DNA from: Ktedonobacterales bacterium
GTDB lineage: Bacteria > Chloroflexota > Ktedonobacteria > Ktedonobacterales > JACDGC01
Assembly (NCBI GenBank): GCA_038234855.1
Contig: JBBQSR010000002.1
Coordinates: 1-32,190 of the forward strand
Reading direction: 5' to 3'
DNA: 32,190 nt
The notes under the pieces were generated by a model, which was not told the DNA's origin, did not search any database, and was given only the letters and a program-made list of their open reading frames with translations. Position numbers and translations under genes: made by a program. Below are positions 3,089 through 30,197 of this stretch, piece after piece. Positions within the stretch are counted from its first letter, which is position 1; the number at the start of each line of letters is the position of its first letter.

Positions 3089-3124
3089 GGGGGAAATCCT
3101 CACTTCATTGGTAGGTCGCATCGG

Positions 3125-14456: not shown

Positions 14457-14637
14457 GGTTATCCCTCCGGTGGCTGATGGCGGCGATGGGCACACTCCTT
14501 GGGCGTGCGGCAGACAGCATCAGCGCGCCAGCCCCCATTTCGGTATTTTACGGCGGCGGGGGCCTTCTCTTCCACATAAACGGCGGGGCGCGATCTTTTT
14601 TGGGTATTGCTTCACAAAAGTTGTGCTCGCCGTGCGC

Positions 14638-15318
14638 TTATGCAGTTGGGGGGGTGGGGCGATATTTGCGGCGCAGACGGTCAACGAGGTTGGCGATGCA
14701 GCGCCGCACCTCGGCGATGTCGGGGAAGTCGTCGGGCAGCAACGCGGGAATCTCGCGCGGGCGATATTCCTCGACCCACAGGGCGTGGGCCAGGCGCAGT
14801 TCGCGGGGCGAGGCCACCTGACGCACCATCTCCCACAGTTCCTGGCCGGCTATCGCGTCTAGCACGCTGTCGGTGTCGTCAGGGTGCGCGAACTCATGGG
14901 CGTCGGGCATCGGCACCTCGCGGCGCTTCCCGCGCAGGGCGTCGAGCATCACCCAATTGACGCTGGTGTGCAGATAGGTCAAGATGGCCCCCAACGACGA
15001 CACATCGAGCGGGTGCTTGCGGTTCGAAAAGAGCAGCCGCTCAAAGACCTCGTGGGCATAGGATTCCAGCGAGTCGCGCAGTTCGACGGTGCGCGCGGCG
15101 GGGTGCCGCTTCACCCAACCTAGGACCATGCGATAATACGCCTCGTACATCGCGGACCAGGCATCCGACGCGTCCTCGCTCAGGGCACGGCGAAAGATTT
15201 CCAGGCAATAGCGTGGATCGGCGGGCGTCCCTCCCCCATATTTCGCGCGCTCATCCGCGCAATGCAGCACCAATTCGTCTAAGGCCTGCTGCGACGCCTC
15301 ACTCTGCACACTCGCCAT
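14638..15318 (-). CDS. Sigma-70 family RNA polymerase sigma factor (ECF-like)
   Basis: ATG 15318 after GGAGG. Region-2-like segment (CLEIFRRALSEDASDAWSAMYEAYYRMVLGWVKRH ... LTYLHTSVNWVMLDALR) and region-4-like HTH (PRELRLAHALWVEEYRPREIPALL...RRCIANLVDRLRR). Confidence 0.65.
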   Translation of the reverse strand: MASVQSEASQQALDELVLHCADERAKYGGGTPADPRYCLEIFRRALSEDASDAWSAMYEAYYRMVLGWVKRHPAARTVELRDSLESYAHEVFERLLFSNRKHPLDVSSLGAILTYLHTSVNWVMLDALRGKRREVPMPDAHEFAHPDDTDSVLDAIAGQELWEMVRQVASPRELRLAHALWVEEYRPREIPALLPDDFPDIAEVRRCIANLVDRLRRKYRPTPPTA

Positions 15319-15475
15319 ACCTGCCTCCGCGCGACCGACGCGCAAAGCGACCGCTGAACTGATCATTGCTACTATCGCGCCTCGGCTACCTATTGTCAAG
15401 CTGTTGAGACGCATGGCCTCTGTAGAAAGGTACGCTTCCCATCGAAGACCGTTCTCAGCGATTGCTCCAAAAGGG

Positions 15476-15504
15476 TTGACTATTCTTGATGCCTATGGCA
15501 TACT
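15476..15504 (+). promoter_or_regulatory. Candidate promoter (TTGACT-17-CATACT) with an embedded palindrome ATGCCtatGGCAT, a possible ArsR operator
   Basis: TTGACT at 15476-15481 and CATACT at 15499-15504. The palindrome at 15489-15501 spans the spacer and the -10 box, about 35 nt upstream of the ArsR start at 15539. Confidence 0.35.
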
Positions 15505-15538
15505 TGATCTATCAAGAAAATTTGATCGGTCGAAACGA

Positions 15539-16426
15539 ATGGAAGATATCGCCGAGGTCTTTTACCTCACCTCCATCGAGCAGGTACGCGCCATCGCCGA
15601 CACCCTGCGTCTGCGTCTGGTCGAGGCTCTGCAAAAAGCGCCCCTGACGGTGACGCAACTGGGCGAACGCGTCGGCGAATCGCCCGCGAAGGTCCATTAC
15701 CACGTGCGTGAGTTGGAACGCATCGGCGTCGTGCGCCTAGTCGAGACGCGCGAACGGGGCGGCATCCTCGAAAAGTATTATCGCGCCGTCGCCAAATCCA
15801 TGCAGATGTCGCCCGATCTCTTGCAGACCGCCCCCCACGACGAGGTGACGGGCATGGTGAATGAGTGGTTTCAGTTGGTCATGCGCGAGGCCACGCGGGC
15901 GCTCACCTATCGCACCGAACACCCCGAGCTTGATGAGCCGCTGACCCTGGCGAGCAAGACCATTCACGCGACCACGGGCGAGTTTCGCGCGCTGCTCAAC
16001 CCATTTTGGGAAAGGTCGGATACCTATGCGGAACCGCGCGGCATCGAAGATGAGCATGAATGGATCGTCAGCCTCGTCGCGCACCGTTGGCGCTCCCCCG
16101 ACGCCGACGCTGTGGTGGACCCCATCGCGCAGATACCGCCCATTCCCCCCGTGCCCCCCGTCGCGCCCGCACCACCCAAGGTGCCCGCGCCATCCATTGA
16201 GCGGTCATTTATCTTAGGTGGGGGCGATTTCAGCCGCAAGGCGCTAGAAGAGGCCGTCGCCAGCAACCGCCCGCTGAGCATCATGGTCATCGGCGTCTGT
16301 CACTTCCCAGAGGACATCCCAGCGGAACTGGTAGACCGCGCGGTGGTGCGCTTTCGCCATTGGGGCCAACTCGTCGCCTCGCCCGAGGTGCGCGAGGTCC
16401 TGCGCCGCAAGGGGGGTGATGCGTAA
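15539..16426 (+). CDS. ArsR-family HTH transcriptional regulator with a long C-terminal extension
   Basis: RAIADTLRLRLVEALQKAPLTVTQLGERVGESPAKVHYHVRELERIGVV is a winged-helix ArsR/SmtB-type HTH. It is followed by about 200 extra residues including a Pro-rich linker (IPPIPPVPPVAPAPPKVPAP). Confidence 0.75.
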   Translation: MEDIAEVFYLTSIEQVRAIADTLRLRLVEALQKAPLTVTQLGERVGESPAKVHYHVRELERIGVVRLVETRERGGILEKYYRAVAKSMQMSPDLLQTAPHDEVTGMVNEWFQLVMREATRALTYRTEHPELDEPLTLASKTIHATTGEFRALLNPFWERSDTYAEPRGIEDEHEWIVSLVAHRWRSPDADAVVDPIAQIPPIPPVPPVAPAPPKVPAPSIERSFILGGGDFSRKALEEAVASNRPLSIMVIGVCHFPEDIPAELVDRAVVRFRHWGQLVASPEVREVLRRKGGDA

Positions 16427-16540
16427 CGCGCTCGCCTTGCCACAAAAAAGCGTGCCGCTGTCTCTTACCCCAGCAGCACGCCCGCGAAGACCCTGGCCGT
16501 CACATCAACTGCAAAAACCGATGAACGAAGGAGCCTTACC

Positions 16541-17962
16541 ATGGATTCTACCACCGCCGCGCCCGACGCGCGCAAACCGGGTCTGCTGATCAATCGCAAC
16601 TTTGGCCTGCTCTTCGCGGGCGGGGCCATCTCGGTCTTTGGCGACATCATCTTCGATTTTACCCTGGTCGTGTGGATCACGCTGGGCCTGGCACACAATG
16701 CGAGCTGGGCACCGTTGGCGGTCAGCGGCGTCTTGTTGGCGGCGGCGGTGCCGCTTTTCATCTTTGGCCCCATCGCGGGCGTCTTCGTGGACCGCTGGGA
16801 CAAGCGCCGCACCATGCTGCGGATGGATGCCATCCGCGCGGTGCTGGTGGGCGTGCTGGTGCTGGCGACGAACATCGTCCCCCTGCCCTTCCTGCCGGAT
16901 GGGCGGCTGCCGCTGGCGGCGCAGCTTTCCATGATCTATAGCATCGTCGTCATCAACACGATCTGCGCCCAGTTCTTTAATCCCGCGAAGATGGCGCTTA
17001 TTGGTGACATCGTGCCGCCGCCGCAGCAAGCACGGGCGGGGGGGCTGAGCCAGACCATCCAGATGCTGTCGCTGGTGCTGGCCCCGCCCATCGCGCCGAT
17101 CCTCTATCTTGCCACGGGGGCGCAGTGGGCCATTGGCATTGATGCACTGTCGTTCCTCGTCTCGTTTCTGTTGGTTGCGGCGGTGCGCGCGCCCAAGGCC
17201 GCCAGCAGCGTCGCCGAGGGGCAGCAGCCCCACTTCCTGCGCGAATTCATGGCGGGGCTGCGCTTCAGTTTTGGCAACCGCACGATCTCGACGCTGATCG
17301 CCTCGGTCGCCATCATCATGTTCGGTGCCAGCGCCCTCAACGCGCTCGATCTCTTCTTCGTGTTGGGTCCGCTGCACACCACGGTGGGCCTCTATGGCTT
17401 TTTGACGGCAGCCATGGGGATTGGTGCTGTGCTGGGGGCCATCTTCGCAGGCATCTTCGCCCAGCGAATTGGCTTGGTGCGTACGCTCAACGTCAGTTTG
17501 CTGGTGGTGGCCGTCGCCATCTTGATCTATTCGCGGTTGACGAGCTTTTGGCCCGCCGTCGCGGTCATGGGGGTCGCGGGCATCTTCCAGTCGGCGCTGA
17601 ATGTGCCGCTGGGGCCATTGCTGCTGCGCATCACCCCGCGCGAGATGATCGGGCGCGTCGCCGCGACCATTAACCCCGTCACGGGCCTCGTCTCGATGCT
17701 GGGCACGGTGCTGGCGGGCTATCTGGCGAGCGAGGTGCTGGTCAACCTGCACGCGAACGCGCTGGGCATGACCTTTGGCCCCATCGATACCATCTTTACC
17801 GGCAGCGCGATCATCGCCATCCTCGGGTCGCTCTACAGCATCGCGCGGCTGGGCTTTCGCGATCCGGCCCCCCGCGTGCCGCCCGCCGCGCCGTTGCCCG
17901 TCGGGGCGGACGCCCCTGCGCTGACGACGGTGGGGGTGCCCGAGACGATCACGGCGGCGTGA
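16541..17962 (+). CDS. MFS transporter (drug/siderophore-exporter-like)
   Basis: About 12 TM segments and the signature GPIAGVFVDRWDKRRTM after TM2. Downstream of the ArsR regulator. Confidence 0.9.
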   Translation: MDSTTAAPDARKPGLLINRNFGLLFAGGAISVFGDIIFDFTLVVWITLGLAHNASWAPLAVSGVLLAAAVPLFIFGPIAGVFVDRWDKRRTMLRMDAIRAVLVGVLVLATNIVPLPFLPDGRLPLAAQLSMIYSIVVINTICAQFFNPAKMALIGDIVPPPQQARAGGLSQTIQMLSLVLAPPIAPILYLATGAQWAIGIDALSFLVSFLLVAAVRAPKAASSVAEGQQPHFLREFMAGLRFSFGNRTISTLIASVAIIMFGASALNALDLFFVLGPLHTTVGLYGFLTAAMGIGAVLGAIFAGIFAQRIGLVRTLNVSLLVVAVAILIYSRLTSFWPAVAVMGVAGIFQSALNVPLGPLLLRITPREMIGRVAATINPVTGLVSMLGTVLAGYLASEVLVNLHANALGMTFGPIDTIFTGSAIIAILGSLYSIARLGFRDPAPRVPPAAPLPVGADAPALTTVGVPETITAA

Positions 17963-18096
17963 ATCTGGCTGCGCCTGGTGCCAGAACGCCAGTTCGCATG
18001 TGTGACTACCTTTTGCCACCCACAGCACCATCTTTGGCTGTGGGTGGCATTCTTATTCTCAAGAGCGACATGCTAGCGCACAAGGGAGGGCACACC

Positions 18097-18456
18097 ATGA
18101 GACTGGGCAGCAGCATCATCAGCACGTCGGATAAAGAGCGGATGAAGCGTTTTTACCATGACATCTTGGGCGTTCCATTCAACGCGGCGGGCAAGCTAGA
18201 GAGCCAGGGCGTCATCATCCATCCCGCCTTCCATGACGCCATTCACCAGCCACCGATTGAGCCATATCGCGTCATGATGACTTTTGACGTTGAGGACGTC
18301 CACCTCGCCGCGAGCCGATTGCAAGCACAAGGCGTCATCTTCATGCGACAGTCAGAACAAAAATCATGGGGAGGATGGATCGCTACGTTCCTCGACCCCG
18401 ATGGGAACTATCTGCAACTCTTGCAGCCCGCAGATAATGGGAGCGATAACGCGTGA
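18097..18456 (+). CDS. VOC (glyoxalase/bleomycin resistance/dioxygenase) family protein
   Basis: ATG 18097 after AAGGGAGG. FYHDILGV...F.V.DV......L...GV........WGGWIATFLDPDGNYLQL is the typical VOC pattern. Confidence 0.75.
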   Translation: MRLGSSIISTSDKERMKRFYHDILGVPFNAAGKLESQGVIIHPAFHDAIHQPPIEPYRVMMTFDVEDVHLAASRLQAQGVIFMRQSEQKSWGGWIATFLDPDGNYLQLLQPADNGSDNA

Positions 18457-18548
18457 GCCTCAGTCATCACGCATCTCGCCGACTTACCGCATCAGAACAG
18501 TGGGTCTGCTGGGAACGCCACCTGTCGATGCGGTACCTGCCGCAGGAG

Positions 18549-18812
18549 TCAGCCGCCAGAAACCGCCATCAGGACGCGAACGACCGAGCGCGGGTGTAGC
18601 ATGGTGCTGAGCATGGCGCGTTCTCCATCGACATATACGTTGATGTGGGGACGTAGGGTCATGTGCGAGTTGCACAAACAGTTGGCAAGGCCCGCCCACC
18701 GCTGATCGAGCTTGGCGATCAGTTCCTGTACGGCCTGTGCGTCCAGTTCGACGCGCAGCGGCAGTCCCGGTACGAGGGCGGTGAGCGCGCGTGGCAGATG
18801 CACCTGTGCCAT
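18549..18812 (-). CDS. MoaD/ThiS-family ubiquitin-like (beta-grasp) small protein ending in Gly-Gly
   Basis: 87 aa with C-terminus ...VLMAVSGG-stop. INVYVDGE is typical of ThiS/MoaD. The start lies 1 nt after the upstream gene's stop, with GGAGG inside that gene's 3' end. Confidence 0.7.
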   Translation of the reverse strand: MAQVHLPRALTALVPGLPLRVELDAQAVQELIAKLDQRWAGLANCLCNSHMTLRPHINVYVDGERAMLSTMLHPRSVVRVLMAVSGG

Positions 18813-18813
18813 G

Positions 18814-19887
18814 TCAGGCCTCCACTAGCGCCGTTTCAACCGACAAAATGGGCGGTAAATTTGTGCAGATCTGCTGCCAACTCTCCCCCTCATCATGACT
18901 GCCAAATACTTGGCCCGTGCTAGTGCCCACATAGATGCCCACGGGGTCTAGGGTATCTACCGCCATCCCTTCACGCAGCACGCCTAAGTAGGCATGCTCC
19001 TCTGGTAATCCCCGTGTCAGCGGACCCCATGAATCGCCGCCATCAGTGCTGCGCCACACCACCATTCGCCCTTCTGGGACGTAACGGCCCTTATCGCCGC
19101 CATTGAGGGGGATCACATACAGGGTATTCGGATCGCGCGGGTGAAGTGCGAGCGGGAAGCCGAAATCCGATGGCAGGCCGGCGGTGATCTCTTGCCAATG
19201 CACGCCAGCATCATCGCTGCGATAGACGCCACAGTGATTTTGCTGGTAGAGTTGTGCGCCATCCGCTGTCAGCAGCAGTTTGTGAACGCACTGGCCAAAC
19301 TCTGGATAGCGCTCGGGATGAAATTCGGCGCGCACACCCTGGTTCCGTGTTGCCCACGTCTGGCCGCCATCCGCTGTCGCGAAGGTTCCAACCGCCGAGA
19401 TGCCCACCCACATGCGGTCAGGCTCGGTGGGATGCACGACGATGGAATGCAGACATAGCCCACCATAGCCAGGTTGCCACTGTGCACACGTGGGATGGTT
19501 GCGGAGTCCCTCAACATGGGTCCAGGTCAGCCCCTGATCGGTGCTGGCAAATAGCCCAGCGGGATCGGCACCGGCATAGATCACGTCTCGCGCCGGGGTG
19601 AGATGCCAAATGGTCGAGATTCCCGGCCCCGCCTCGCCATAGGTCAGGCCGATATTCGTATGCGACCACGTCTCCCCTACATTCTCGCTGCGCCAGATGC
19701 CGGGGCCAAACCACGGATTGCCCCCAGCCGCATAGAGAAGATGGGTGGCGTCGTCGTAGACCATGTGATAAATGGGCGACGCCTCGCAGAATGGACCCCG
19801 CAGGTGCCATTCCGTTCGTCCCTCGTTGCCTGTGAGCAGAAACGCGCCTTTCTTCGTCCCCAAGAGCACCAAGACTTGTGCTGTCAT
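18814..19887 (-). CDS. BNR/Asp-box repeat beta-propeller protein (sialidase/xyloglucanase-like fold), cytoplasmic (no signal peptide)
   Basis: Six Asp-box-like motifs (SENVGETW, STDQGLTW, TADGGQTW, SDDAGVHW, STDGGDSW, SHDEGESW). Starts MTAQVLVLLGTKKGAF with no signal sequence. Confidence 0.8.
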   Translation of the reverse strand: MTAQVLVLLGTKKGAFLLTGNEGRTEWHLRGPFCEASPIYHMVYDDATHLLYAAGGNPWFGPGIWRSENVGETWSHTNIGLTYGEAGPGISTIWHLTPARDVIYAGADPAGLFASTDQGLTWTHVEGLRNHPTCAQWQPGYGGLCLHSIVVHPTEPDRMWVGISAVGTFATADGGQTWATRNQGVRAEFHPERYPEFGQCVHKLLLTADGAQLYQQNHCGVYRSDDAGVHWQEITAGLPSDFGFPLALHPRDPNTLYVIPLNGGDKGRYVPEGRMVVWRSTDGGDSWGPLTRGLPEEHAYLGVLREGMAVDTLDPVGIYVGTSTGQVFGSHDEGESWQQICTNLPPILSVETALVEA

Positions 19888-19957
19888 CCGTCTACTCCTT
19901 CAGCGAAATATCGCTTCTATCGCTCAGTCCACCACTGCGCCCATAGAACTTACGTAC

Positions 19958-19987
19958 AATATAGCCAGGGAACGATCCATTTGTCAA
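19958..19987 (-). promoter_or_regulatory. Candidate sigma70 promoter (TTGACA-18-TATATT, minus strand) for the BNR / MoaD-like pair
   Basis: The minus strand reads TTGACA (19987-19982), an 18-nt spacer, then TATATT (19963-19958), about 70 nt upstream of the start at 19887. Confidence 0.4.
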
Positions 19988-20174
19988 TAATGCTAGCTTA
20001 TTTCGCTTAGGCATCCCATTTCACCAGTCACCAGGGAGAGCGTCCATCCCCGCTGTCCTTTCGGTTCAGCAAGGGGCCGCGAGCATCGTGTGGGCCGCGC
20101 TGGGGCCACCGTCAGGCCCCAGCGGCGGCTTCTTGCGCGATGGGCAACCCTCGCCCTGGTGCTGTCCGCCCCGC

Positions 20175-21764
20175 CTAGCGTGTGGCGGCGGGCATGGGCA
20201 CCTGGCGGCCTGACGGGTCGGCCTCGTCGCGGCGGGCACCCTCGTGATATTCCGCGTCGGTGTTGACGCGCCAGGGATCGTACTGGGTGCCCAGGGCGAT
20301 GTTGCGCGCCGCCAGCAGGGCCGTCATCATTGAATGGTCCTGGTTGTTGTAGTGGTGCATGCCATTGCGGCCCACCAGATGCAGATTCGGCAGGTGCGCT
20401 TCCAGGTAGTCGCGCACCACCGCGACGTGCTGCTTGTAGGTCGCGTCATAGACGGGGTAGGCCTTAGGCTGGCGCACCACCGTCCCCCCGGTGATGTCTT
20501 GCGGGCGGCACATCCCCAGCTTCACCAATTCTTCGCCGCCGAGCCGCACCAGATCCGCGTCGGCTTGCTCCCACAGGCCGTCGCCCGCGAAGCAGAAATA
20601 TTCCAGCCCCAGGCAGGTCGTCTGCGGGTCGGGCACCATGGCGGGACTCCAATTCTTGAAGTTCTGGATGCGTCCGGCGATGATGCCAGGGTCATGTAGA
20701 TAGATCCAATTATCGGGGAAGACCTCGGCCTGGTTCAGGATGAGCGCGATGGTGAGGAAGTCGCGGTAGCGCAACGACCGCGCGGCCTCGACCACCGCTG
20801 GCGGCAGGGCGGGGTCGCACATCTCGACCAGATTGCGCATCGGCAGGGTCGAGATGAAGTGGTTGCCCCGGATGGTGCGCTCCGCGCCCGTCGTGGCGTC
20901 GCGCGTGACTACCGCCGTCACGCGCCCGCCGCTGTGGCGCACGCGCACGATCTCTTGTCCTAGGTGCACCTGGCCGCCCCGCCCGCGAATCAGATCGCGC
21001 GTGCGGTCCCACATCTGCCCAGGGCCGTAGCGTGGGTAGCGGAATTCGTCGATCAGAGTCTTGATGACCTCGCCATCCTTGCCCTTTTGGCCGGGGAAGA
21101 GCGCGCCCTTGATCGCCTGAGTCAGGTTCAGCCCTTTGATGCGCTGCCCTGCCCAGTCCGCCGAAAGTTCCTTGGTGCTGATGCCCCAGACTTTCTCGGT
21201 GTATGTCTTGAAGAAGATCGAGAAGAGGCGCTCACCGAATTGGTTGCTGACCCAATCTTCGAGATTCTGCGGGTTCGCGACGGGGTGCAGCCGCGCGCCC
21301 GCGTAGCTGGCGAGGCAGCGCACCGTCTCGCCGATGCCCAGGTTGCGCAGCGCGTTCATCGCCTTGAGCGGATAGTCGAAGTATTTGCCGCGATAGAGGA
21401 TGCGCGACAGGCGGGGCCGCTTCAGCAATTCGTCACCGAGGATCTCGGTCCACAGATCCTCGATCTCTTGGCTTTTGGAAAAGAAGCGGTGGCCGCCGAT
21501 GTCGAAGCGATAGCCTTGATATTCCGCCGTGCGGCTGATGCCGCCGACATAGTGGGGGTCGGCTTCGAGCACCGTGACGGGGGTGGCATGGCGCGTCAGT
21601 TCATACGCGGCGGTGAGTCCCGCTGGCCCCGCGCCCAGTACCACGACGGGGGACCGCTCGCCCGAGGGCACCTGGGCGGCGGGGAAGGCGATGTCGGGGG
21701 CGAGTTGGTCGGCTCCCCGACCGGCGATGAGGGCATCCTGCTGGTTGAGCATGGTCTGTTGCAT
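20175..21764 (-). CDS. NAD(P)/FAD-dependent oxidoreductase (amine-oxidase / UDP-galactopyranose-mutase-like superfamily)
   Basis: Rossmann dinucleotide motif VVVLGAGPAGLTAAYEL....VTVLEA....GG, then RFDIGGHRFF and a long conserved C-terminal body. The exact start (21764 or the ATG 12 nt downstream) is uncertain. Confidence 0.85.
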   Translation of the reverse strand: MQQTMLNQQDALIAGRGADQLAPDIAFPAAQVPSGERSPVVVLGAGPAGLTAAYELTRHATPVTVLEADPHYVGGISRTAEYQGYRFDIGGHRFFSKSQEIEDLWTEILGDELLKRPRLSRILYRGKYFDYPLKAMNALRNLGIGETVRCLASYAGARLHPVANPQNLEDWVSNQFGERLFSIFFKTYTEKVWGISTKELSADWAGQRIKGLNLTQAIKGALFPGQKGKDGEVIKTLIDEFRYPRYGPGQMWDRTRDLIRGRGGQVHLGQEIVRVRHSGGRVTAVVTRDATTGAERTIRGNHFISTLPMRNLVEMCDPALPPAVVEAARSLRYRDFLTIALILNQAEVFPDNWIYLHDPGIIAGRIQNFKNWSPAMVPDPQTTCLGLEYFCFAGDGLWEQADADLVRLGGEELVKLGMCRPQDITGGTVVRQPKAYPVYDATYKQHVAVVRDYLEAHLPNLHLVGRNGMHHYNNQDHSMMTALLAARNIALGTQYDPWRVNTDAEYHEGARRDEADPSGRQVPMPAATR

Positions 21765-21951
21765 CCTTTCAACATCCGTACAGTACTAGCATAGGTACGC
21801 AAGCCAAACACCAACATTCGGCAATCGCTGGTTGAGTTTCACTCTCTATGGCACTGGATAGGAGGTTGCAAGATGTGCTAGATTGCGTCCATGTGAGACA
21901 CCGAATGCCCACAGTGCCCGTGTGGCCGTGTTTGTATTTGTGATAATTTTC

Positions 21952-21980
21952 TTGACAATTACAAAATGCCATGTTATACT
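21952..21980 (+). promoter_or_regulatory. Near-consensus sigma70 promoter (TTGACA-17-TATACT) driving the island cassette
   Basis: TTGACA at 21952-21957, a 17-nt spacer, TATACT at 21975-21980, about 30 nt upstream of the ATG at 22013. AT-rich upstream tract. Confidence 0.6.
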
Positions 21981-22012
21981 AGCAATGTAACAGCGTAATC
22001 TTCATAGGGGGA

Positions 22013-22693
22013 ATGGGCAGCATGCCGATGACAAGGGAAGAATTTGTTGCAGTATTAGCGCCAGCACAATTGGGCTTTATCATCGAAAGCATCCAGTTGG
22101 GTCTAGCGGATTATACGAATCCGCTTAACTATAGTGCTACTGCGAAAATTGCTCATACTCCTAGTGTTCGGGCGCAGATCCGCAACGCCCATATTGTGTA
22201 TCGCGCTAAAGAGTTGTTGAATGGACAAGATGGTGTTGGCATTGTTCCCAGAACTAGTGGGCAACGGCTCCTATTTTATGTCGCTGAGAATATCCGTTTA
22301 TCTTTTAAGAAGCTGAATACCAATCTGCGTTCGCAAAACTATCCAACCAAACAGGCAATAGCATTCAATGCACAACAATGGCCCTCAGATCTCGATTATG
22401 CGGCACAGCCTACTAAGCCAGAGCAACTTCCATTATGGTCGCAAGATATCGTGCCACAACTCACGAATCTGATTGGTGGATATGTGTATAATCAAGCTGA
22501 AACAAGCTTTATCGCTTATGTCGTGTGCCCAGATGGTGAACGTAACGTATGGGACTGGCCGTTGACAACGCACGATATCATTGAACTTGCTCATGCTGAG
22601 AATATCGCCGAGACGGAAGCAGTAACAAAAATTCGCAGCCGACCGATCCGCATTCGCCCAGGCGCGTCAAACACGCGAAAGAAGTCAGGGTAA
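22013..22693 (+). CDS. Hypothetical protein (226 aa), no recognisable domain; first gene of the island cassette
   Basis: Single long ORF in a low-GC context, where spurious long ORFs are unlikely. RBS AGGGGG upstream; alternative ATGs at 22022 and 22028. Basic C-terminal tail (RSRPIRIRPGASNTRKKSG). TAA stop abuts the next ATG. Confidence 0.7.
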   Translation: MGSMPMTREEFVAVLAPAQLGFIIESIQLGLADYTNPLNYSATAKIAHTPSVRAQIRNAHIVYRAKELLNGQDGVGIVPRTSGQRLLFYVAENIRLSFKKLNTNLRSQNYPTKQAIAFNAQQWPSDLDYAAQPTKPEQLPLWSQDIVPQLTNLIGGYVYNQAETSFIAYVVCPDGERNVWDWPLTTHDIIELAHAENIAETEAVTKIRSRPIRIRPGASNTRKKSG

Positions 22694-23779
22694 ATGGCAC
22701 AGCGTTACCAGCGTACCCACAATCAAACGATCAACCCCCAAATGATCGTACTTGCACGAGAATCACGGGGCCTCTCGCAAAAAGAGTTGGCTGCAAAGCT
22801 TGGCGTCCCACAAAGCCGTATTTCGATGATCGAGATGCAACTGCGCCCCATTTCTGATGATCTCATTGGCATGATCGCTAAAATTTTAGATTACCCACTC
22901 GCTTTCTTCTGGCAAGTGGGAGCAATTAATGGCATCGGTATCGCCGAGATATTTCATCGTAAGCGCCATGCCGTTCCCAAACGCACGCTTGATACTATCT
23001 ACGCCCGTTGCGAAATTCGCTTCAAACATCTTAATGCGCTTCTCATTTCTGTTGATGTGGAAACGACAGTCAATACAATTGACGTGAACAATTTTCCCCA
23101 GGAGCCAAGAGAAATCGCGCAGATGGTGCGCGCAAGTTTACACATTCCTAGAGGGCCTATCATAGATGTAACCGATGTTCTTGAAAATGCCGGTATTATT
23201 GTCATTGCCTTTGATTTTGAGACGACACGAGTAGATGCTCTCAGTCGGTGGATTCCGCATATGCCTCCGATTATTTTCGTTAATACGCAATGTCCCAAGG
23301 ATCGCCTTCGCTTCTCTTTAGCCCATGAATTAGGACACGTTGTCATGCATACTTCACCCAACCCTTATATGGAACAACAAGCGGATGATTTTGCGGCAGA
23401 GTTTTTGTTGCCTGAAAGAGAGGTGCGCTTAAATCTAGCAGCAGTTGATCTGGCTCAACTTGCGGTTCTCAAGCAGTATTGGAAGGTTTCGATGGCGGCG
23501 CTCTTGAAGCGGGCTGAGGATTTGGAAATCATCACGCCAAATAGGGTGCGTTATTTATGGGCACAAATGGCACGTCTTGGTTATAAAACGCGTGAACCAG
23601 TTGAGTTAGATATCAAGGGGGAAGAACCCAAACTGGTAAAGGAGATCATTGATGCGCATCTGAATGAGCTTGACTATACGATGCATGATCTCTTAGAGAT
23701 TCTGCCCCTACATGAGAACGAGCTAAAGACTTACTATTGGGAAGAGTCACGGCGAAAACATCTGAAACTCGTAAAATAA
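22694..23779 (+). CDS. XRE-family HTH domain fused to an ImmA/IrrE-family (M78, COG2856) zinc metallopeptidase
   Basis: N-terminal HTH (ARESRGLSQKELAAKLGVPQSRISMIEMQLRPIS). HEXXH motif with downstream acidic partner (RFSLAHELGHVVMH.......EQQADDFAAEFLLPE), characteristic of ImmA/IrrE peptidases. Confidence 0.9.
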   Translation: MAQRYQRTHNQTINPQMIVLARESRGLSQKELAAKLGVPQSRISMIEMQLRPISDDLIGMIAKILDYPLAFFWQVGAINGIGIAEIFHRKRHAVPKRTLDTIYARCEIRFKHLNALLISVDVETTVNTIDVNNFPQEPREIAQMVRASLHIPRGPIIDVTDVLENAGIIVIAFDFETTRVDALSRWIPHMPPIIFVNTQCPKDRLRFSLAHELGHVVMHTSPNPYMEQQADDFAAEFLLPEREVRLNLAAVDLAQLAVLKQYWKVSMAALLKRAEDLEIITPNRVRYLWAQMARLGYKTREPVELDIKGEEPKLVKEIIDAHLNELDYTMHDLLEILPLHENELKTYYWEESRRKHLKLVK

Positions 23780-23818
23780 ACCATCACCAAGGATACGATA
23801 AGAGGAGGCAACGGCAAG

Positions 23819-24178
23819 TTGGCGCTGAAAGACGTCCTGGGGCGATTCGTGGCGATTGATGGCGTGCGGGCGCTGATCGTGGCCGGGCGTGATGGCCTGG
23901 TCATCGGCCAGACGGATCTGCCCCTGCCCGACGCGGAGGCGCTGGCGGCCTATGGTGCCCAGGCGCTCGGCGCGGCGGAGGGGCTGGGCAGCGAGACGCG
24001 CCGTACCGCGCTGGTCGGCCTGATCGTGGAATATGGCGACGCGCTGGTCAGCATAGACCCGCTCGGTGAGTTGGCCGTGACGGTAGCGCGGCTCGACACG
24101 GCGGCGGCGCTGGTGCCGCTGCGGCAAAATTTGCGGCAATGGCGCGGCGACCTCTTGGCAGCCCTCGACGCCATGTGA
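23819..24178 (+). CDS. Roadblock/LC7 (MglB-like) domain protein
   Basis: TTG start 10 nt after AGGAGG. The pattern L......GV.A.IVAGRDGLVIG...........ALAAYGA......E.L....L....VEYGDALV...P is typical of Roadblock/LC7 proteins. Confidence 0.7.
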   Translation: MALKDVLGRFVAIDGVRALIVAGRDGLVIGQTDLPLPDAEALAAYGAQALGAAEGLGSETRRTALVGLIVEYGDALVSIDPLGELAVTVARLDTAAALVPLRQNLRQWRGDLLAALDAM

Positions 24179-24191
24179 GATACTGCCCATT

Positions 24192-25262
24192 ATGAATGAA
24201 CCCACGAACCCCAACTCCGGCGCGTATGCCGCGTCGGGCGTCGAGATCGACGCGCTGAACCGCGCCAAACGGCTGATCGGTGAATCCGTCGCCAGCACGC
24301 GCCGCCCCGAGGTGCTCGCCGACATGGGGGCCTTTGGGGGCCTCTTTGCCCTCAGCCCGCTTGGCATGCGCGATCCCGTGCTCGTGACCTCCATCGATGG
24401 CGTCGGCACGAAGCTGAAGGTCGCCTTCGCGCTGAACCGGCATGGCTCGATCGGCGCGGATCTGGTGGCGCACTGCGTCAACGACATTCTCACCACGGGC
24501 GCGCGTCCGTTGATGTTCCTCGACTATCTGGCGCTGGGCGACCTCGCGCCCGAGACCATCGCGCTGATCGTCGCGGGAGTGGCCGAGGGTTGCGCGGCGG
24601 CGGGCTGCGCGCTCATCGGTGGCGAGACGGCGCAGATGCCTGGCTTTTACCCGACGGGCGAATATGATCTGGCGGGCACCATCATCGGCATTGTGGAGCG
24701 CGACGCCATCGTCACCGGCAAGACCGTTGCGGCGGGCGATGTGGTCATCGGCCTGCCCGCCGTGGGGCTGCACACGAATGGCTATGCGCTGGCACGCCAG
24801 GTCTTCGCGGCGGATGACTGGTCCGCCGTCGTCCCTGAACTGGGGATGAGCCTGGGCGACGCGCTGCTGCTGCCGCATTCGTCCTATCTGGCTCCGGTAC
24901 GACGCGTGCTGGATGACCCGGCGCTGGCGGGGGTCGTGACGGGGATGGCGCACATCACGGGCGGCGGCTTGCTCGAAAACATCCCCCGCGTGCTGCCCGA
25001 TGGCCTGGGGGCCGATCTGGATGCGACGCGCTGGGACGTGCTGCCGCTCTTCCGGCTGATACAGCGGCGCGGCGATGTCGCATGGGACGAGATGGCGCGC
25101 GTCTTTAACCTGGGCATCGGCTATACCCTGCTGGTGCGCCCCGCCCAGGCCAACGCCGTGCTGGACGCGCTGAATGACGGTGGCATGCTGGGCCGCACCA
25201 TCGGCACGGTGGTGGCGCGGGCAGGCGAGCCGCGCGTGCGGGTGGAGGGTTTGCCGCGATGA
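24192..25262 (+). CDS. purM: Phosphoribosylformylglycinamidine cyclo-ligase (AIR synthetase)
   Basis: YAASGVEIDA.N, GAFGGLFAL, LVTSIDGVGTKLKVA, DLVAHCVNDILTTGARPLMFLDY and AHITGGG are canonical PurM motifs. Confidence 0.95.
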   Translation: MNEPTNPNSGAYAASGVEIDALNRAKRLIGESVASTRRPEVLADMGAFGGLFALSPLGMRDPVLVTSIDGVGTKLKVAFALNRHGSIGADLVAHCVNDILTTGARPLMFLDYLALGDLAPETIALIVAGVAEGCAAAGCALIGGETAQMPGFYPTGEYDLAGTIIGIVERDAIVTGKTVAAGDVVIGLPAVGLHTNGYALARQVFAADDWSAVVPELGMSLGDALLLPHSSYLAPVRRVLDDPALAGVVTGMAHITGGGLLENIPRVLPDGLGADLDATRWDVLPLFRLIQRRGDVAWDEMARVFNLGIGYTLLVRPAQANAVLDALNDGGMLGRTIGTVVARAGEPRVRVEGLPR

Positions 25263-25897
25263 CCGACGCGCCACGCATCGGCGTCCTGGTGTCGGGACGC
25301 GGCACCAATCTCGCTGCCTTGATCGACGCCATTCGCGTGGGATCGCTCTTCGCGCGCATCGCGTTGGTGATTTCGAGCAAGGCTGATGTGCCCGCGCTCC
25401 GCATCGCCGGGGAGGCGGGCATCGCCACGCAGGTGATCGCGCCGCGCGCCTTCGCCTCGCGCGCCGAGGAGGGCGCGGCCATCGTGACAGCACTGCGGGC
25501 GGTCGGCGCGGAGGTGGTGGTGACGGCGGGCTACGCGCGCATCTTCGACGCGTGTGTGGTCGAGGCGTTTCGTTGGCGCATCATCAACATCCATCCCTCG
25601 CTGCTGCCAGCCTTCGCGGGCAGCATGGCACCGGGGCCACAGGCGGCGGCGCTGGCCTCGGGCGTCAAATTCACCGGCTGCACCACCCATTTCGTCACGG
25701 AGGCCACTGACGCGGGACCGATCATCGACCAGGCCGTCGTGCCGGTGCACGATGACGACACGGTCGAGACGCTGGCGGATCGCATCTTGGCTGCCGAGCA
25801 TCGCTTGCTGCCCGCCAGCGTCGGTGCCGTGCTGGCCGATCAGGTCATCATCGATGGCCCGCGCACGCGCCGAAAGCTCGCCCATGCGCGCGATTGA
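25259..25897 (+). CDS. purN: Phosphoribosylglycinamide formyltransferase
   Basis: RIGVLVSGRGTNLAALIDA, IINIHPSLLPAFAG and GCTTHFVTEATDAGPIIDQ are canonical PurN motifs. ATGA overlap with the purM stop. Confidence 0.95.
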   Translation: MTDAPRIGVLVSGRGTNLAALIDAIRVGSLFARIALVISSKADVPALRIAGEAGIATQVIAPRAFASRAEEGAAIVTALRAVGAEVVVTAGYARIFDACVVEAFRWRIINIHPSLLPAFAGSMAPGPQAAALASGVKFTGCTTHFVTEATDAGPIIDQAVVPVHDDDTVETLADRILAAEHRLLPASVGAVLADQVIIDGPRTRRKLAHARD

Positions 25898-26126
25898 TGA
25901 CCCGACCGCCGCCTATCTCGAGGTGCTGCGGCTGCTGCGAAGCTGGGGCGCGCTCCCCGAAAGCGACCTCAGCCGCATGACCGCGCACTGGATGCTCACC
26001 ACCAACGACTTCCGCGAGATGGAAGAGCAAGGCTACGTCGACCTCACCTTCGCCGGGGATGAATACGTCGTCGCCATGTCGCTGCTCGGTCGCCTGTGGC
26101 TGGAACGCGAAGAGACGCCGCCCTAG
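25884..26126 (+). CDS. Small hypothetical protein (80 aa) overlapping the purN 3' end by 14 nt
   Basis: ATG 25884. The sequence (MRAIDDPTAAYLEVLRLLRSWGALPESDLSRM...EEQGYVDL...) has normal composition, possibly winged-helix-like. No clear RBS. Confidence 0.35.
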   Translation: MRAIDDPTAAYLEVLRLLRSWGALPESDLSRMTAHWMLTTNDFREMEEQGYVDLTFAGDEYVVAMSLLGRLWLEREETPP

Positions 26127-26185
26127 ATCTTTTTGCGACAAGACCAGAGACGCATCCCTAGCAATCTCATCACCGAGGAGCAGCC

Positions 26186-27304
26186 ATGACCGCCCAGCAG
26201 ACCGATACCACGACGCCGACCACCACGACCGCCCAACTTTTCACCCCCTACCCGATCAAATCGCTCACCTTGCGCAACCGCGTCATGGTGTCGCCAATGT
26301 GCCAATATAGCTCCGTCGATGGCTTCGCCGATGAGTGGCATTTGGTGCACCTGGGCGGCTTCGCGGTCGGCGGGGCGGCGGTCGTCATGACCGAGGCAAC
26401 GGCGGTGGAGGCGCGTGGGCGCATCTCGCCGCAAGACCTGGGCATCTGGGATGACGCGCACATCGCCATGCTGGCGCGCATCACCGCATTCATCCGCGCG
26501 CAGGGGGCGTTGCCCGCGATCCAGTTGGCGCACGCGGGGCGCAAGGCCAGTACGCTGCGTCCGTGGTCGGGGCACGGGGTGGCCGATGTCGCCGCTGGTG
26601 GCTGGCCCGAGGCGGTCATCGGCCCCAGCGCGCTCGCCTTCGCCCCTACCTATCCCATGCCCCAGGCGATGACGCACGCGGACATCGCGGCGGTCATCGC
26701 GTCCTTTCGCCAGGCGGCACGGCGCAGCCTGGCGGCGGGCTTCGAGATCATCGAATTGCACGCCGCGCATGGCTACCTCTTCCATGAATTTTTGTCGCCA
26801 GCGGCGAATCAGCGCGACGATGCATACGGCGGTTCGCTGGCGAATCGTGCGCGTTTCCTGCTGGACGCGGTCGCCGCCGTGCGCGAGGAATGGCCCGCGA
26901 CGCTGCCGATCTTCGTGCGGGTGAGCGCGACGGACTGGCTGCCATCGGGCCAGGGCTTCACGGTGGATGAGTGCGTGCAGGTGGCGGCGTGGCTGCGCGC
27001 GGCGGGCGTGGACCTGGTCGATGTTTCCAGCGGCGGGCTGGACGCACGACAGCAGGTGGAGGTCGGCCCTGGCTATCAGGTGCCCTTCGCCGCGCGGCTG
27101 CGCCACGAGGGCGGCATCCCCGTGGCGGCGGTCGGGATGATCACGGGTTCTGCTCAGGCCGAGGCCATCGTGCGAGACGGTCAGGCCGACCTCATCGCCC
27201 TGGCCCGCGAACTGCTGCGCGCTCCGCATTGGCCGCTGCGGGCGGCGCGCGAACTGGGTGCCGACATCACCTGGCCCGTGCAGTACGAGCGCGCCAAAGC
27301 GTAA
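26186..27304 (+). CDS. namA: NADPH dehydrogenase / Old Yellow Enzyme family flavin oxidoreductase (YqjM/NamA type)
   Basis: LRNRVMVSPMCQYSS.DGF..EWHLVHLG..A.GGAAVVMTEATAV...GRISP.DLGIWDD and IELHAAHGYL.HEFLSP..N.R.D.YGGS are canonical OYE motifs. RBS GAGGAG. Confidence 0.9.
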   Translation: MTAQQTDTTTPTTTTAQLFTPYPIKSLTLRNRVMVSPMCQYSSVDGFADEWHLVHLGGFAVGGAAVVMTEATAVEARGRISPQDLGIWDDAHIAMLARITAFIRAQGALPAIQLAHAGRKASTLRPWSGHGVADVAAGGWPEAVIGPSALAFAPTYPMPQAMTHADIAAVIASFRQAARRSLAAGFEIIELHAAHGYLFHEFLSPAANQRDDAYGGSLANRARFLLDAVAAVREEWPATLPIFVRVSATDWLPSGQGFTVDECVQVAAWLRAAGVDLVDVSSGGLDARQQVEVGPGYQVPFAARLRHEGGIPVAAVGMITGSAQAEAIVRDGQADLIALARELLRAPHWPLRAARELGADITWPVQYERAKA

Positions 27305-27379
27305 ACCACGCCGTCACCGTGGGGGCATCGTGCCCCAGTGGTGGTAAGCAACGATAGACACGTGAAAGGATGCTCCATC

Positions 27380-27778
27380 ATGGATTGGCGACTGGAAGTC
27401 ATCGTCGTCCCCGTCTCGGATGTGGACCGCGCGAAGCATTTTTATAGTGAGCAAGTCGGATTCGTCGTGGACGTGGATCGGACGATGAGCGATACCTTTC
27501 GGGTGGTGCAGATGACCCCGCCCGGCTCCGCATGCTCCGTCACCATCGGCATGTCTACCATGCCACCAGGGTCGATGCAAGGGCTGCAACTGGTCGTCAG
27601 CGACATCGAGGTCGCGCGGGCGGAACTGGTCGCGCGTGGCGTCGATGTCAGCACCATCAAACACTTCGATAACGGCGTCCAGGCCGATGGACCAGGCGGC
27701 GACTGGAACTCCTTCATCTTCTTCAGCGACCCTGACGGCAATAGCTGGGCCGTGCAGCAAGCCCCCAAGCGGGGCTGA
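27380..27778 (+). CDS. VOC (glyoxalase) family protein
   Basis: LEVIVVPVSDVDRAKHFYSEQVGF...LQLVVSDIEVARAELVARGV......FFSDPDGNSWAVQQ. ATG 27380 after AAAGGA. Confidence 0.8.
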   Translation: MDWRLEVIVVPVSDVDRAKHFYSEQVGFVVDVDRTMSDTFRVVQMTPPGSACSVTIGMSTMPPGSMQGLQLVVSDIEVARAELVARGVDVSTIKHFDNGVQADGPGGDWNSFIFFSDPDGNSWAVQQAPKRG

Positions 27779-27980
27779 CGAGCCACCACGCGCGGGCGTT
27801 GGCAGCGCCGCCAAGGTGTGACGGCTCCCCGACCTGGGCGCATGCGTCCATCCTGTCTGTGACCATGAACCTTTTGCCCATCCATTCTCTTTGCCGCGCG
27901 GCGCAAGGGGGAGGGTGGGCATGTTCTTTGTGGCGTTTGTTGCCAGCCAACCAGATAGGGAGCCTCCGCAAAACACGATG

Positions 27981-28008
27981 TTACAAATAGCGCATTCGTG
28001 GATATTAG
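27981..28008 (+). promoter_or_regulatory. Weak candidate promoter (TTACAA-16-TATTAG) upstream of the ECF sigma gene
   Basis: Hexamers at 27981-27986 and 28003-28008 in a lower-GC intergenic region, about 55 nt before the ATG at 28063. Confidence 0.3.
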
Positions 28009-28062
28009 CTTATGGAGCGCGTGCTGTGTCTGCCACCCTGTATGGAATGAGGATGCCGAAAG

Positions 28063-28584
28063 ATGACGGCTCAATCTCAGGCCGAGAGCTTTGAGAGTTT
28101 CTTTCGCCGCTATCAAGCCCAAGTTTCGGGGTACCTGTGGCGAATGACCTGCAATGAGCAAATCGTCCTCGATCTGTGCCAAGAAACGTTTTTCCGTGCA
28201 TGGCAGCATTTTGAGCAGATTCGCACCTATCCGCACCCGGCGTCATGGCTATTTCGCGTCGCCACGAACCTTGCCTTGCAAGACATCCGGCGGCGGTCAT
28301 CACCCGTCGGGGCAGCCACGCCCTTTGCTGATGACGAGCGCGACCCGGCGGCCAGCGACCCTGGTCGACGCGTCGCGGAAAGCGAACTGGTGCGCCAAAC
28401 GCTGTTGGCCCTGCCCCCCAAACAGCGCGCCCTGCTGGTATTGCGCGAGGTGTATGACGTGCCCTTCGAAGAATTAGCGGAAATGATGGAGATGAGTGCA
28501 TCGGCGACCCGCATGGCGCTCTCACGCGCACGCGAACAGTTTCGCCAGATCTATCGCCGAAAGGATGGTGGGAAAGATGCATGA
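28063..28584 (+). CDS. ECF-family RNA polymerase sigma factor
   Basis: Region 2 (FFRRYQAQVSGYLWRMT.N.....DLCQETFFRAW..........SWLFRVATNLALQDIRRR) and region 4 (LPPKQRALLVLREVYDVPFEELAEMMEMSASATRMALSRAREQFR). Confidence 0.9.
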   Translation: MTAQSQAESFESFFRRYQAQVSGYLWRMTCNEQIVLDLCQETFFRAWQHFEQIRTYPHPASWLFRVATNLALQDIRRRSSPVGAATPFADDERDPAASDPGRRVAESELVRQTLLALPPKQRALLVLREVYDVPFEELAEMMEMSASATRMALSRAREQFRQIYRRKDGGKDA

Positions 28585-30100
28585 CCTCGTGCGCCATTGC
28601 ACCCAAAACATGTCCGTCGATGCGCTCTCGGGCTGGCGCGATGACACGTTAGGGCCAGAGGTGGCTGAGCGGGTGGCCACCCATTTGCCGACCTGTCGCG
28701 CGTGCCAGGCCTATCTCCACGAATATGAGCAAGATGCGTTACGGTTGCGGCGTTTCACCCCACCGTCGCTGCAAGCGGAAGCGTGGCAGTTGATCGAAAG
28801 GCGAATGCGGCAACCACCGGCACCGCCTCCCCGCTTACGCGTGATCTTCACGCGGTGGAGCGTGCCGTTTGTCGTCCTGACGCTGATCGTGCTCTTTGCC
28901 CTGCTGCTCAATAATGGCGGGCGGCGACCGAGCCCGGTGACGCAGGTTCCCACCACAACCGTCGCTCATGGCACGCCCAATGGTGCGCCAACGGGTACCC
29001 CAAATGCCCGGCAAGGGTGGACCGACATCCCCGCGCTGAGTTTTGGCAAGTCGGTCGCCTTTGCGGCGAGCGATCCCCAAACGGGGTATGTCTGCGGCAA
29101 TAATCCGGCGGCGGGTGCGACCGCGTCGTTGCAGATCGCGGCGACCCATGATGGCGGACGAACCTGGGGACAGCCGCTCACGAGCGGCATTGCCAACCAG
29201 GCTGCCTGTCGGCTAGCGGTGAATCCCAGCGATCCTCAAGAGGTAGCGATGAATGTCTCGGCATGTTGGGAAGGATGCAGCGGCAGCGGTCAATATGGCC
29301 CAGATCTGTATCGCTCTTTCGATGGCGGGCGGACCTGGCAACCATCGACCTTCCCCACGAGCGGTGGCAATGTGGGGATCAGTGCGCCAGTCTGGGCGAA
29401 AGGCGCGATGTTCGTGTATACGACGACAACGGGCGCGAACTCCGTCGTGCCCTTTCAGCGCGGGGCACACTCGGTCGCGGTCAGCCTCAACAACGGCCCG
29501 CTGGGCTGGGTCAACGATGCCACGATGTTCGCGGGCATGAGCGATCTCTCGGTCGAGATCACGAATGCGTTTACCTACAATGGCGCGTATTTCGTGCAGG
29601 TGAATGGCGCGACCTTCAAGACCACGGATTATGGTGCCACCTGGTCGCGGCTGGCCTCCGTCGACACGATCGTCATCACCGCTGTCGCCGCCGATGGCAG
29701 CACGCTCCTGGGCCAGCATACCGCCGACCACCAATACATCCGTTCGGTCGATGGCGGGGTCAGCTGGACGCCATTCGCTGTGCCACCAAATACCACGCGC
29801 ATCGTCACGACACCGAATGGCACGTACTATGTCTGGCAGGACGATGCGTCCGCGACGACGCCAAAGACCATTTATCGGCAGACCCCCGGCGGTACCACCT
29901 GGACGCCCGTCGCGGTGATCGATCCGTTGCAACGCCCGACCCTGACCTGGGCGGTCGTGTCGTGGGATGCCCATGGTCAACCACAGCACCTGTGGGCGAC
30001 GGAGGCGACGGAGGCGACGAGTGCCGTCTCGGTCGCGTCGTCGCATATTCCCGCGAGTGCGAGTGGCTATCTGCCGGGCATCGCTCAGCACGCGCCCTGA
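28577..30100 (+). CDS. Membrane-spanning anti-sigma factor (zf-HC2) with an extracytoplasmic BNR/Asp-box beta-propeller domain
   Basis: 8-nt overlap with the sigma gene stop (ATGCATGA). HLPTCRAC zinc-finger motif, one TM segment (VPFVVLTLIVLFALLL), then four Asp-boxes (THDGGRTW, SFDGGRTW, TTDYGATW, SVDGGVSW). Alternative ATG at 28565. Confidence 0.75.
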   Translation: MHDLVRHCTQNMSVDALSGWRDDTLGPEVAERVATHLPTCRACQAYLHEYEQDALRLRRFTPPSLQAEAWQLIERRMRQPPAPPPRLRVIFTRWSVPFVVLTLIVLFALLLNNGGRRPSPVTQVPTTTVAHGTPNGAPTGTPNARQGWTDIPALSFGKSVAFAASDPQTGYVCGNNPAAGATASLQIAATHDGGRTWGQPLTSGIANQAACRLAVNPSDPQEVAMNVSACWEGCSGSGQYGPDLYRSFDGGRTWQPSTFPTSGGNVGISAPVWAKGAMFVYTTTTGANSVVPFQRGAHSVAVSLNNGPLGWVNDATMFAGMSDLSVEITNAFTYNGAYFVQVNGATFKTTDYGATWSRLASVDTIVITAVAADGSTLLGQHTADHQYIRSVDGGVSWTPFAVPPNTTRIVTTPNGTYYVWQDDASATTPKTIYRQTPGGTTWTPVAVIDPLQRPTLTWAVVSWDAHGQPQHLWATEATEATSAVSVASSHIPASASGYLPGIAQHAP

Positions 30101-30197
30101 TCCAGGGCATGCCAGGTAAGGATACATCCCGTTATCATCATCGTCTTGGTCGCTTCCACACGACCCAGATATCCACACCAGAAAGTGACAGTGCAAG

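Follow-up and report, generated by a model that had tools for sequence, protein, structure and literature searches.

The contig JBBQSR010000002.1 of a Ktedonobacterales bacterium (assembly GCA_038234855.1) was analysed from position 1 to 32,190, a stretch of 32,190 nucleotides (nt) that is referred to here as the window. Between the 5′ end of a gene for a flavin adenine dinucleotide (FAD) amine-oxidase-type oxidoreductase and a divergently oriented roadblock-purM-purN operon, it carries an island of low guanine-plus-cytosine (GC) content, with exactly two long open reading frames (ORFs), on the plus strand (Table 1). ORF1 represents a so far undescribed protein family and is presumed, by analogy, to be a candidate toxin, and ORF2 resembles RmrA, the antitoxin with helix-turn-helix (HTH) and zinc-peptidase domains of the anti-phage RosmerTA toxin-antitoxin (TA) systems (Millman et al. 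2022; Ernits et al. 2023, NetFlax node D25).

An earlier note on this DNA had described a sharp island of about 2 kb, and its composition is indeed strongly foreign. Over 1986 base pairs (bp) the GC content is 0.462, compared to 0.644 in the remaining window, and 525 windows of the same size outside the island have a mean of 0.640 (standard deviation 0.023) and a minimum of 0.585, which makes this the sole dip of its size within 32 kb. From about 21770 to 23800, GC in 200-nt windows is only 0.42-0.53, down from 0.62-0.72, and the tetranucleotide distance reaches its maximum of 0.67 over the island versus 0.15-0.31 elsewhere in the window. Codon choice switches to A/T-ending codons, with a GC content at third codon positions (GC3) of 0.43 in ORF1 and 0.46 in ORF2 against 0.83-0.85 in the oxidoreductase, roadblock, purM and purN genes. 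The note's counts in 60-nt segments (45/60 in both flanks, 27/60 and 21/60 inside) were reproduced exactly; the 75% GC that it gave for the flanks is a local maximum, however, since these average 64-70%.

When genomes were scanned with the oxidoreductase protein, the host fell among Chloroflexota/Ktedonobacterales. The closest relative locus lies in the Ktedonobacterales metagenome-assembled genome (MAG) MGR_bin402 (L047), the sole close relative found with this locus, at a DNA identity of about 80-82%. There the oxidoreductase and roadblock-purM-purN genes are divergent and adjacent, with a 296-bp spacer and neither ORF1 nor ORF2, as expected of an empty site. Blastn homology covers window positions 20196-21817 and 23804-25480; the left edge of the island is at 21817/21818 and the right edge somewhere in 23780-23803. 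The island stands in place of about 224 bp of L047 intergenic DNA, and leftover native intergenic sequence inside it was rejected, local alignment past the junctions being no better than with shuffled sequence. The insertion into a divergent promoter region that the earlier note had proposed is thus correct in its location, but the event was an insertion plus replacement and not a clean one. With its foreign composition and its absence from the nearest relative, the cassette DNA is best read as a recent acquisition. A riboswitch or other non-coding RNA gained or lost at the site was also considered and dismissed, as no credible Rfam match occurs in window 21000-24600; the Rfam scan of L047 gave one sub-threshold match to a snoRNA model, outside the intergenic region.

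Judged by its domains, ORF2 is an RmrA-type protein with an XRE HTH, an intact M78 zinc-peptidase motif and a C-terminal domain. The HTH spans amino acids (aa) 21-72 (Pfam HTH_3, E-value 1.5e-12) and the M78 (ImmA/IrrE) zinc-peptidase domain aa 164-274 (Pfam Peptidase_M78, 6e-19; HELGH at 211-215), both above the cut-off. The PADLOC RmrA model PDLC03947 matches aa 7-344 over model positions 5-357 of 383 (7.9e-59), and altogether 14 RmrA models of this collection match ORF2 over nearly its full length, with the CapP match at just 4e-16. Strong similarity was also found to phrog_2439, a “transcriptional regulator” (1e-79), and an NCBIfam model for the spr1629 repressor/antitoxin matches under its cut-off. 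More than 2000 homologues were recovered at E<=1e-20, many of them in Chloroflexota MAGs. In an alignment of 22 homologues H211, E212 and H215 of the HEXXH motif are invariant together with E227 and E236, and ORF2 retains these and all other invariant family residues. The public gene call starts at Met17 (22742 instead of 22694) and yields 345 aa, but N14 and P15, upstream of this methionine, are conserved in the same 22 homologues, which indicates that the 361-aa form is the correct one; its ATG follows immediately after the ORF1 stop codon. In an AlphaFold2 (AF2) model of ORF2 (predicted local distance difference test, pLDDT, 84), the HTH lies at the N-terminus, followed by a peptidase core of alpha/beta type and a helical domain at the C-terminus. 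In Foldseek searches the core matched CapP (7t5t, E 5e-4) and IrrE (3dti, 1.4e-3), each with probability 1.0, as well as IrrE/PprI (8sln) and a regulator of M. tuberculosis (6cz6), and the HTH matched SinR, C.BclI and CapH. A weak sequence match was obtained to the HTH-peptidase chain of PDB entry 9vzy, for which no describing paper was found. Phages, those of Gordonia among them, and 282 plasmids carry relatives with 30-40% identity, the Gordonia-phage and plasmid HTH-M78 genes being about 33% identical to ORF2.

The longest reading frame of ORF1 begins at 22013; we prefer the start at 22022, from which residues are numbered here. Neither ORF1 nor the other members of its family matched Pfam, NCBIfam, PADLOC or PDB sequences. 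The sole PHROG match was non-significant (phrog_15813, E 0.41), and searching ORF1 and 60 family members against the PADLOC models at E<=0.01 returned two stray Cas4 matches only. The family comprises 212 representative clusters (50% identity), mostly of 195-235 aa, in an exhaustive HMMER search at E<=1e-3, where a word-indexed search gave just five other clusters. It inhabits soil and sediment metagenomes and one Roseicitreum plasmid; a single-sequence ORF1 scan of viral contigs gave no match, nor did tblastn against phage and plasmid collections, although the family hidden Markov model (HMM) does find the plasmid member. Near-invariant residues (Y31, Y37, H45, H57, R82, K96, T109, Q118, G153-Y154, P170 and W177) are mostly polar or aromatic, and every one is kept in the window copy. 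The protein is soluble and basic (isoelectric point 8.97) with a conserved basic, disordered C-terminal tail, and its AF2 model (pLDDT 86.8; predicted template modelling score, pTM, 0.78) shows four helices at the N-terminus and two meanders of three strands each. Foldseek found no match to this model in PDB or BFVD at E<=0.001, all template modelling scores (TM-scores) being below 0.3. Very weak Foldseek and PADLOC matches pointed to nucleases (EcoRV, Hjc, VRR-NUC, Cas4). A PD-(D/E)XK nuclease was nevertheless rejected on account of these TM-scores and of a would-be acidic catalytic column that is not conserved, and a membrane toxin like the RmrT of phage Kita was rejected for want of a transmembrane segment. 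Our best guess, drawn from the basic tail and from the polar character of the residues that are conserved, is that ORF1 could be a cytoplasmic enzyme acting on nucleic acid or nucleotides.

The ORF1 family is found nearly always immediately upstream of this RmrA subclade. All 13 distinct cassettes from protein or plasmid look-ups have an ORF1-family gene directly upstream of an ORF2-like gene, and such a gene precedes each of the three nearest ORF2 homologues. A metagenome scan with the ORF2 alignment yielded 80 loci, 65 of them with sufficient upstream DNA; in 57 of these 65 an ORF1-family ORF ends at the ORF2 start, the eight exceptions being an orphan and those relatives that are most distant from ORF2. 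Seen from the other gene, all ORF1-family proteins on readable contigs are followed by a same-strand, abutting or overlapping gene for an HTH_3 plus Peptidase_M78 protein of 358-387 aa. The neighbourhoods of the pairs are unrelated and include restriction-modification genes (near the cassette in L007, L091 and L096), a plasmid, a prophage-like region and housekeeping genes, with glycosidase, kinase and pur genes among the neighbours, and the low-GC islet also occurs in other high-GC hosts (cassettes L005, L099 and L089). The nearby restriction-modification genes are the one indirect hint of a part in phage defence.

The Roseicitreum plasmid is pRA04 of the cultured organism Roseicitreum antarcticum, with the pair WP_092891858.1 and WP_092891856.1 (L182 2432-4092, equal to NZ_CP061499.1 8313-9973). 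It was matched by the ORF1-family HMM at 6e-35, was missed by tblastn with the window ORF1 and is annotated merely as “hypothetical protein” and “ImmA/IrrE family metallo-endopeptidase”; it represents a convenient source for experiments. A prophage-like metagenome region (L001; 12049-13849, minus strand, and 11401-11910) contains a Fic gene besides two pairs, one of the ORF1/ORF2 type and a second that joins a 223-aa protein to an HTH-M78 protein of 378 aa. The 223-aa protein of the second pair is unrelated to the ORF1 family and was rejected as a member, and the region illustrates partner swapping around RmrA-like antitoxins. In 13 independent loci (L091, 5816-6652; L095, 5867-6706; L113, L123, L127, L128, L136, L139, L150, L151, L155, L163 and L165) the cassette is directly adjoined by a gene like a divergent IS1-family transposase, which codes for about 279 aa with 50-63% identity from locus to locus. 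It is found immediately downstream in the same orientation as the cassette, or upstream in divergent orientation. These cassettes are more distant relatives of the one studied here, and the window holds no remnant of the IS1-like gene, which could serve to mobilise the cassette or act as its third component. Purine genes lie beside the cassette in the window (purMN, 23819-25897), in L089 (purM-purH, 2815-3825) and in L099 (purE, 1558-2058); a link was rejected as coincidence, given that purM, purN, purE and purH flank 0 of 80 further metagenomic loci.

In agreement with the earlier note, which had counted exactly two genes and a promoter of their own, the site upstream of ORF1 is a sigma-70 promoter with an extended -10 and the top-scoring one in 21500-24300. 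Its -35 and -10 hexamers, the TTTGTGA element, the palindrome over the -35 and the ATG are conserved across four aligned cassettes in which ORF1 identity is only 43-50%. The palindrome is near-perfect in relatives such as L007 (TTGCATTTTGCAA, TTGCA-N3-TGCAA; window counterpart TTGACAATTACAA), and distant cassettes have the same layout with other repeated half-sites upstream of the -35. Promoters scoring at least 10/12 were present in 17/66 cassette upstream regions versus 5/57 control regions. By analogy with related regulators we infer that the ORF2 HTH may bind the palindrome or half-sites over the -35 and thereby autoregulate the operon.

Table 1. Features of the cassette and of its native flanks in the window (aa identities are to L047; RBS, ribosome-binding site)
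Feature	Position	Strand	Remarks
FAD amine-oxidase-type oxidoreductase, native left flank	20175..21764	-	Pfam Amino_oxidase 4.6e-18; 83-88% aa identity
Oxidoreductase upstream leader, 53 nt, native	21765-21817		homology to L047 reaches 21817
Foreign low-GC island, 1986 bp	21818..23803	.	blastn homology to L047 stops at 21817 and restarts at 23804
Operator-like elements	21937..21964	+	TTTGTGA 21937-21943; imperfect palindrome TTGACAATTACAA 21952-21964 over -35 hexamer; columns invariant in 4 cassettes
Cassette promoter	21952..21980	+	TTGACA-17 nt-TATACT; TG at 21972-21973 before -10; 11/12 consensus positions
ORF1, 223 aa, candidate toxin/effector, RmrT-like by position	22022..22693	+	ATG 22022 invariant in 4 cassettes; RBS GGGGGA 22007-22012
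ORF2, 361 aa, RmrA-like antitoxin/regulator	22694..23779	+	HTH_3, Peptidase_M78, PADLOC RmrA
Junction, ORF2 stop to roadblock TTG start, 39 nt	23780..23818	+	roadblock RBS GGAGG 23804-23808
Roadblock/LC7, native right flank	23819-24178	+	Pfam Robl_LC7; 92% aa identity
purM, native right flank	24192-25262	+	86% aa identity
purN, native right flank	25259-25897	+	84% aa identity

The roadblock-purM-purN operon sits directly downstream of the cassette. No terminator-like site or stable hairpin was found in the junction between them; strong stem-loops follow right after ORF2 in the closest cassettes (L007, L097 and L005). The L047 intergenic region has a single promoter-like site (CTGCCA-18-TATACT with TG, L047 1696-1725, about 34 nt upstream of roadblock), which falls in the segment missing from the window, and the event likely removed the native roadblock-purMN promoter. 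With no terminator in the cassette and the native promoter lost, roadblock-purM-purN probably depends on read-through transcription that starts at the cassette promoter. The purMN operon is needed for de novo purine synthesis. One might go further and speculate that ORF1 represents a new-fold effector family with a toxic mechanism new to TA and defence systems and that the cassette-driven purMN transcription provides a second, transcriptional route of addiction, in which case cassette loss or tight repression would starve the cell of purines; we would give this idea a rather small chance. On the other side of the island, a milder composition anomaly at 18000-20100 (GC 0.51-0.60, tetranucleotide distance up to 0.31 around 18001-20000) takes in a minus-strand BNR/Sortilin-Vps10-repeat gene (18814-19887) together with the non-coding DNA that precedes the 3′ end of the oxidoreductase gene.

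With respect to the insertion event, no tRNA was found at the island, no direct or inverted repeats at its borders other than short ones at chance level, and no integrase, recombinase or transposase domain in the island or in 10 neighbouring long ORFs (13993-19887 and 26123-31577; Pfam scan). This is in line with the earlier note, which had seen neither an integrase nor a tRNA nor flanking direct repeats and had suggested a search for target-site duplications. Such duplications, as well as terminal inverted repeats, were rejected, since the short chance-level repeats were all that was found. The window contains none of the transposase gene, terminal inverted repeats and target-site duplication of an insertion sequence (IS) or transposon passenger, and the island none of the recombinase, tRNA or attachment site and flanking direct repeats of an integrative element. 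It might have arrived by illegitimate recombination or by a double crossover from a cassette-carrying strain.

A working mechanism for the cassette, beyond its architecture, can be proposed by analogy with RosmerTA, ImmR/ImmA, DdrO/IrrE and CapH/CapP. The ORF2 HTH would bind the palindrome and repeats over the -35 and autorepress the operon, and ORF2 would keep the ORF1 toxin in check. In CapH/CapP and DdrO/IrrE the M78 protease inactivates the XRE repressor on a DNA-damage signal, and CapP and IrrE respond to DNA damage or single-stranded DNA, which is why a phage-induced signal is proposed for ORF2 as well. Such a phage- or damage-derived signal would either activate the M78 peptidase or inactivate or deplete ORF2. 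ORF1, a soluble, basic and probably enzymatic effector, would then be set free and arrest the growth of the infected cell.

Taken together, we consider it probable that the island is a horizontally acquired, autonomous RosmerTA-type two-gene TA or abortive-infection cassette in the divergent promoter region of the oxidoreductase and roadblock-purMN genes. The empty site, the foreign composition, the RmrA match and the recurring two-gene module all bear out the earlier note's idea of a minimal, cargo-only, acquired TA or defence cassette, and because of its position, architecture and profile match the cassette can be expected to work like RosmerTA. Several points weigh against this interpretation. 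No PADLOC RmrT model matches ORF1, whose fold offers no clue to its function, and both its toxicity and phage defence by the pair are deduced from analogy. ORF2-like proteins are 44-60% identical versus 26-50% for ORF1-like proteins, whereas many classical TA pairs show the opposite. The window comes from just one metagenome contig, and neither repeats nor a recombinase point to the way in which the island was inserted. A very sharp composition break without insertion scars, together with the location of both proteins on one metagenome contig of 32190 bp, could also be accounted for by an assembly chimera, with reads of foreign origin built into the contig of the host. Yet both flanks are collinear with one L047 locus, so that two precise joins between syntenic blocks would be required, which moreover would have to place a complete promoter-plus-operon unit between them, and homologous cassettes form low-GC islets in the other high-GC hosts mentioned above; we regard a chimera as very improbable. 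Even less credit can be given to the view that ORF1 and ORF2 are ancestral at the locus and were lost in the L047 lineage. Just one close relative with the locus is available, at about 80-82% DNA identity, but the GC3 of 0.43-0.46 against about 0.84 reveals no amelioration towards the host, and the 296-bp intergenic region of L047 is a normal one that has a promoter-like site and is free of cassette remnants.

Other explanations accept the acquisition and assign different roles to the proteins. The pair might be a repressor/protease switch of the ImmR-ImmA, DdrO-IrrE or CapH-CapP type, either a degraded mobile-element remnant or a stress regulator, with ORF1 as non-toxic cargo or accessory protein. 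The domains of ORF2 correspond to CapH plus CapP, or DdrO plus IrrE, in fused form, its match to the phrog_2439 regulator is strong, some relatives reside in prophage-like regions and ORF1 has no recognisable toxin domain. While the M78 fold of such switches is present, a separate HTH repressor gene controlling an adjacent element or regulon is not. The two-gene unit recurs in dozens of unrelated contexts without a mobile-element or effector operon, the island offers no other genes to regulate and RmrA is the best PADLOC match, some 40 orders of magnitude over CapP, all of which renders a switch unlikely. A different assignment follows from the prediction of COG2856-Xre TA pairs with COG2856 as the toxin (Makarova et al. 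2009, PMC2701414): the M78 peptidase moiety, whose active-site residues are intact in ORF2, would be toxic, the fused HTH its antidote or regulator, and ORF1 an accessory or sensor. This appears quite improbable to us, as the HTH-peptidase of RosmerTA behaves as an antitoxin (bioRxiv 10.1101/2022.05.11.491447; PMC10440598) and the co-occurrence of ORF1 with the ORF2 subclade (57/65) fits a cognate toxin-antitoxin pair.

The acquisition of a small TA or defence islet by horizontal transfer is an ordinary, well-known kind of event. The locus is of interest as a clean natural case of such an islet in a promoter region, probably rewiring a housekeeping purMN operon, and its landing there bears on how such islets become fixed. 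RmrA-type HTH-peptidase antitoxins form the hub of a combinatorial TA/defence network, in which new partner families enlarge the effector catalogue. PADLOC would report only an orphan RmrA here, which reveals a gap in current detectors, and the ORF1 family, with its 212 clusters and a confident predicted fold without neighbour, offers a concrete target to assays of toxicity and mechanism.

Among the known systems, type II TA modules such as HigBA and HipBA share with the cassette a bicistronic, translationally coupled and probably autorepressed organisation, an HTH antitoxin and the frequent location in a low-GC islet, and one member of the present family is likewise on a plasmid. Unlike in those modules, the antitoxin is a 361-aa three-domain enzyme and not a small labile protein, and no known toxin family or fold is involved. 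The ImmR/ImmA pair of ICEBs1 and phage immunity modules resemble it in the logic of an M78 anti-repressor and an XRE repressor and in the strong phrog_2439 match; here, in contrast, genes for an integrase, an excisionase or other parts of an element are lacking from the island, and the pair behaves as an autonomous cassette. CapH/CapP of the cyclic oligonucleotide-based antiphage signalling systems (CBASS) and DdrO/IrrE of the Deinococcus radiation response contain the closest structures to the ORF2 peptidase (7t5t, 3dti and 8sln), and its HTH resembles the N-terminal domain of CapH and SinR-type HTH domains. They differ in that HTH and protease are fused in ORF2, that there is a single small partner and that no CBASS or repair regulon lies downstream.

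RosmerTA systems combine diverse toxins of unknown type with a zinc-peptidase/HTH antitoxin whose gene, rmrA, could not be deleted (bioRxiv 10.1101/2022.05.11.491447), and 58% of the pairs have the toxin-first order (bioRxiv 10.1101/2022.05.11.491447; PMC10440598). RmrA of phage Kita neutralises a family-less RmrT toxin, the pair protects against some coliphages, Kita RmrT has no relatives and Kita RmrT-D5 is membrane-depolarising (PMC10440598). In the window we likewise find a two-gene operon, an XRE HTH and ImmA/M78 antitoxin matching RmrA over its full length with an intact active site, and an adjacent, co-oriented, variable partner in the common toxin-first order, and like RosmerTA such pairs are found on phages, plasmids and chromosomal islets. 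The differences are confined to the partner: ORF1 falls into no catalogued RmrT family, matching no PADLOC RmrT model or other profile library significantly, and is predicted to be soluble where the Kita toxin depolarises membranes. Membership in a catalogued RmrT family is, however, an operational rather than an essential mark of the system, because RmrT is heterogeneous by definition and the Kita RmrT is also without relatives. By the usage of the field the pair is thus RosmerTA, in which a fairly widespread, undescribed partner family without structural neighbour is joined to a clear RmrA antitoxin.

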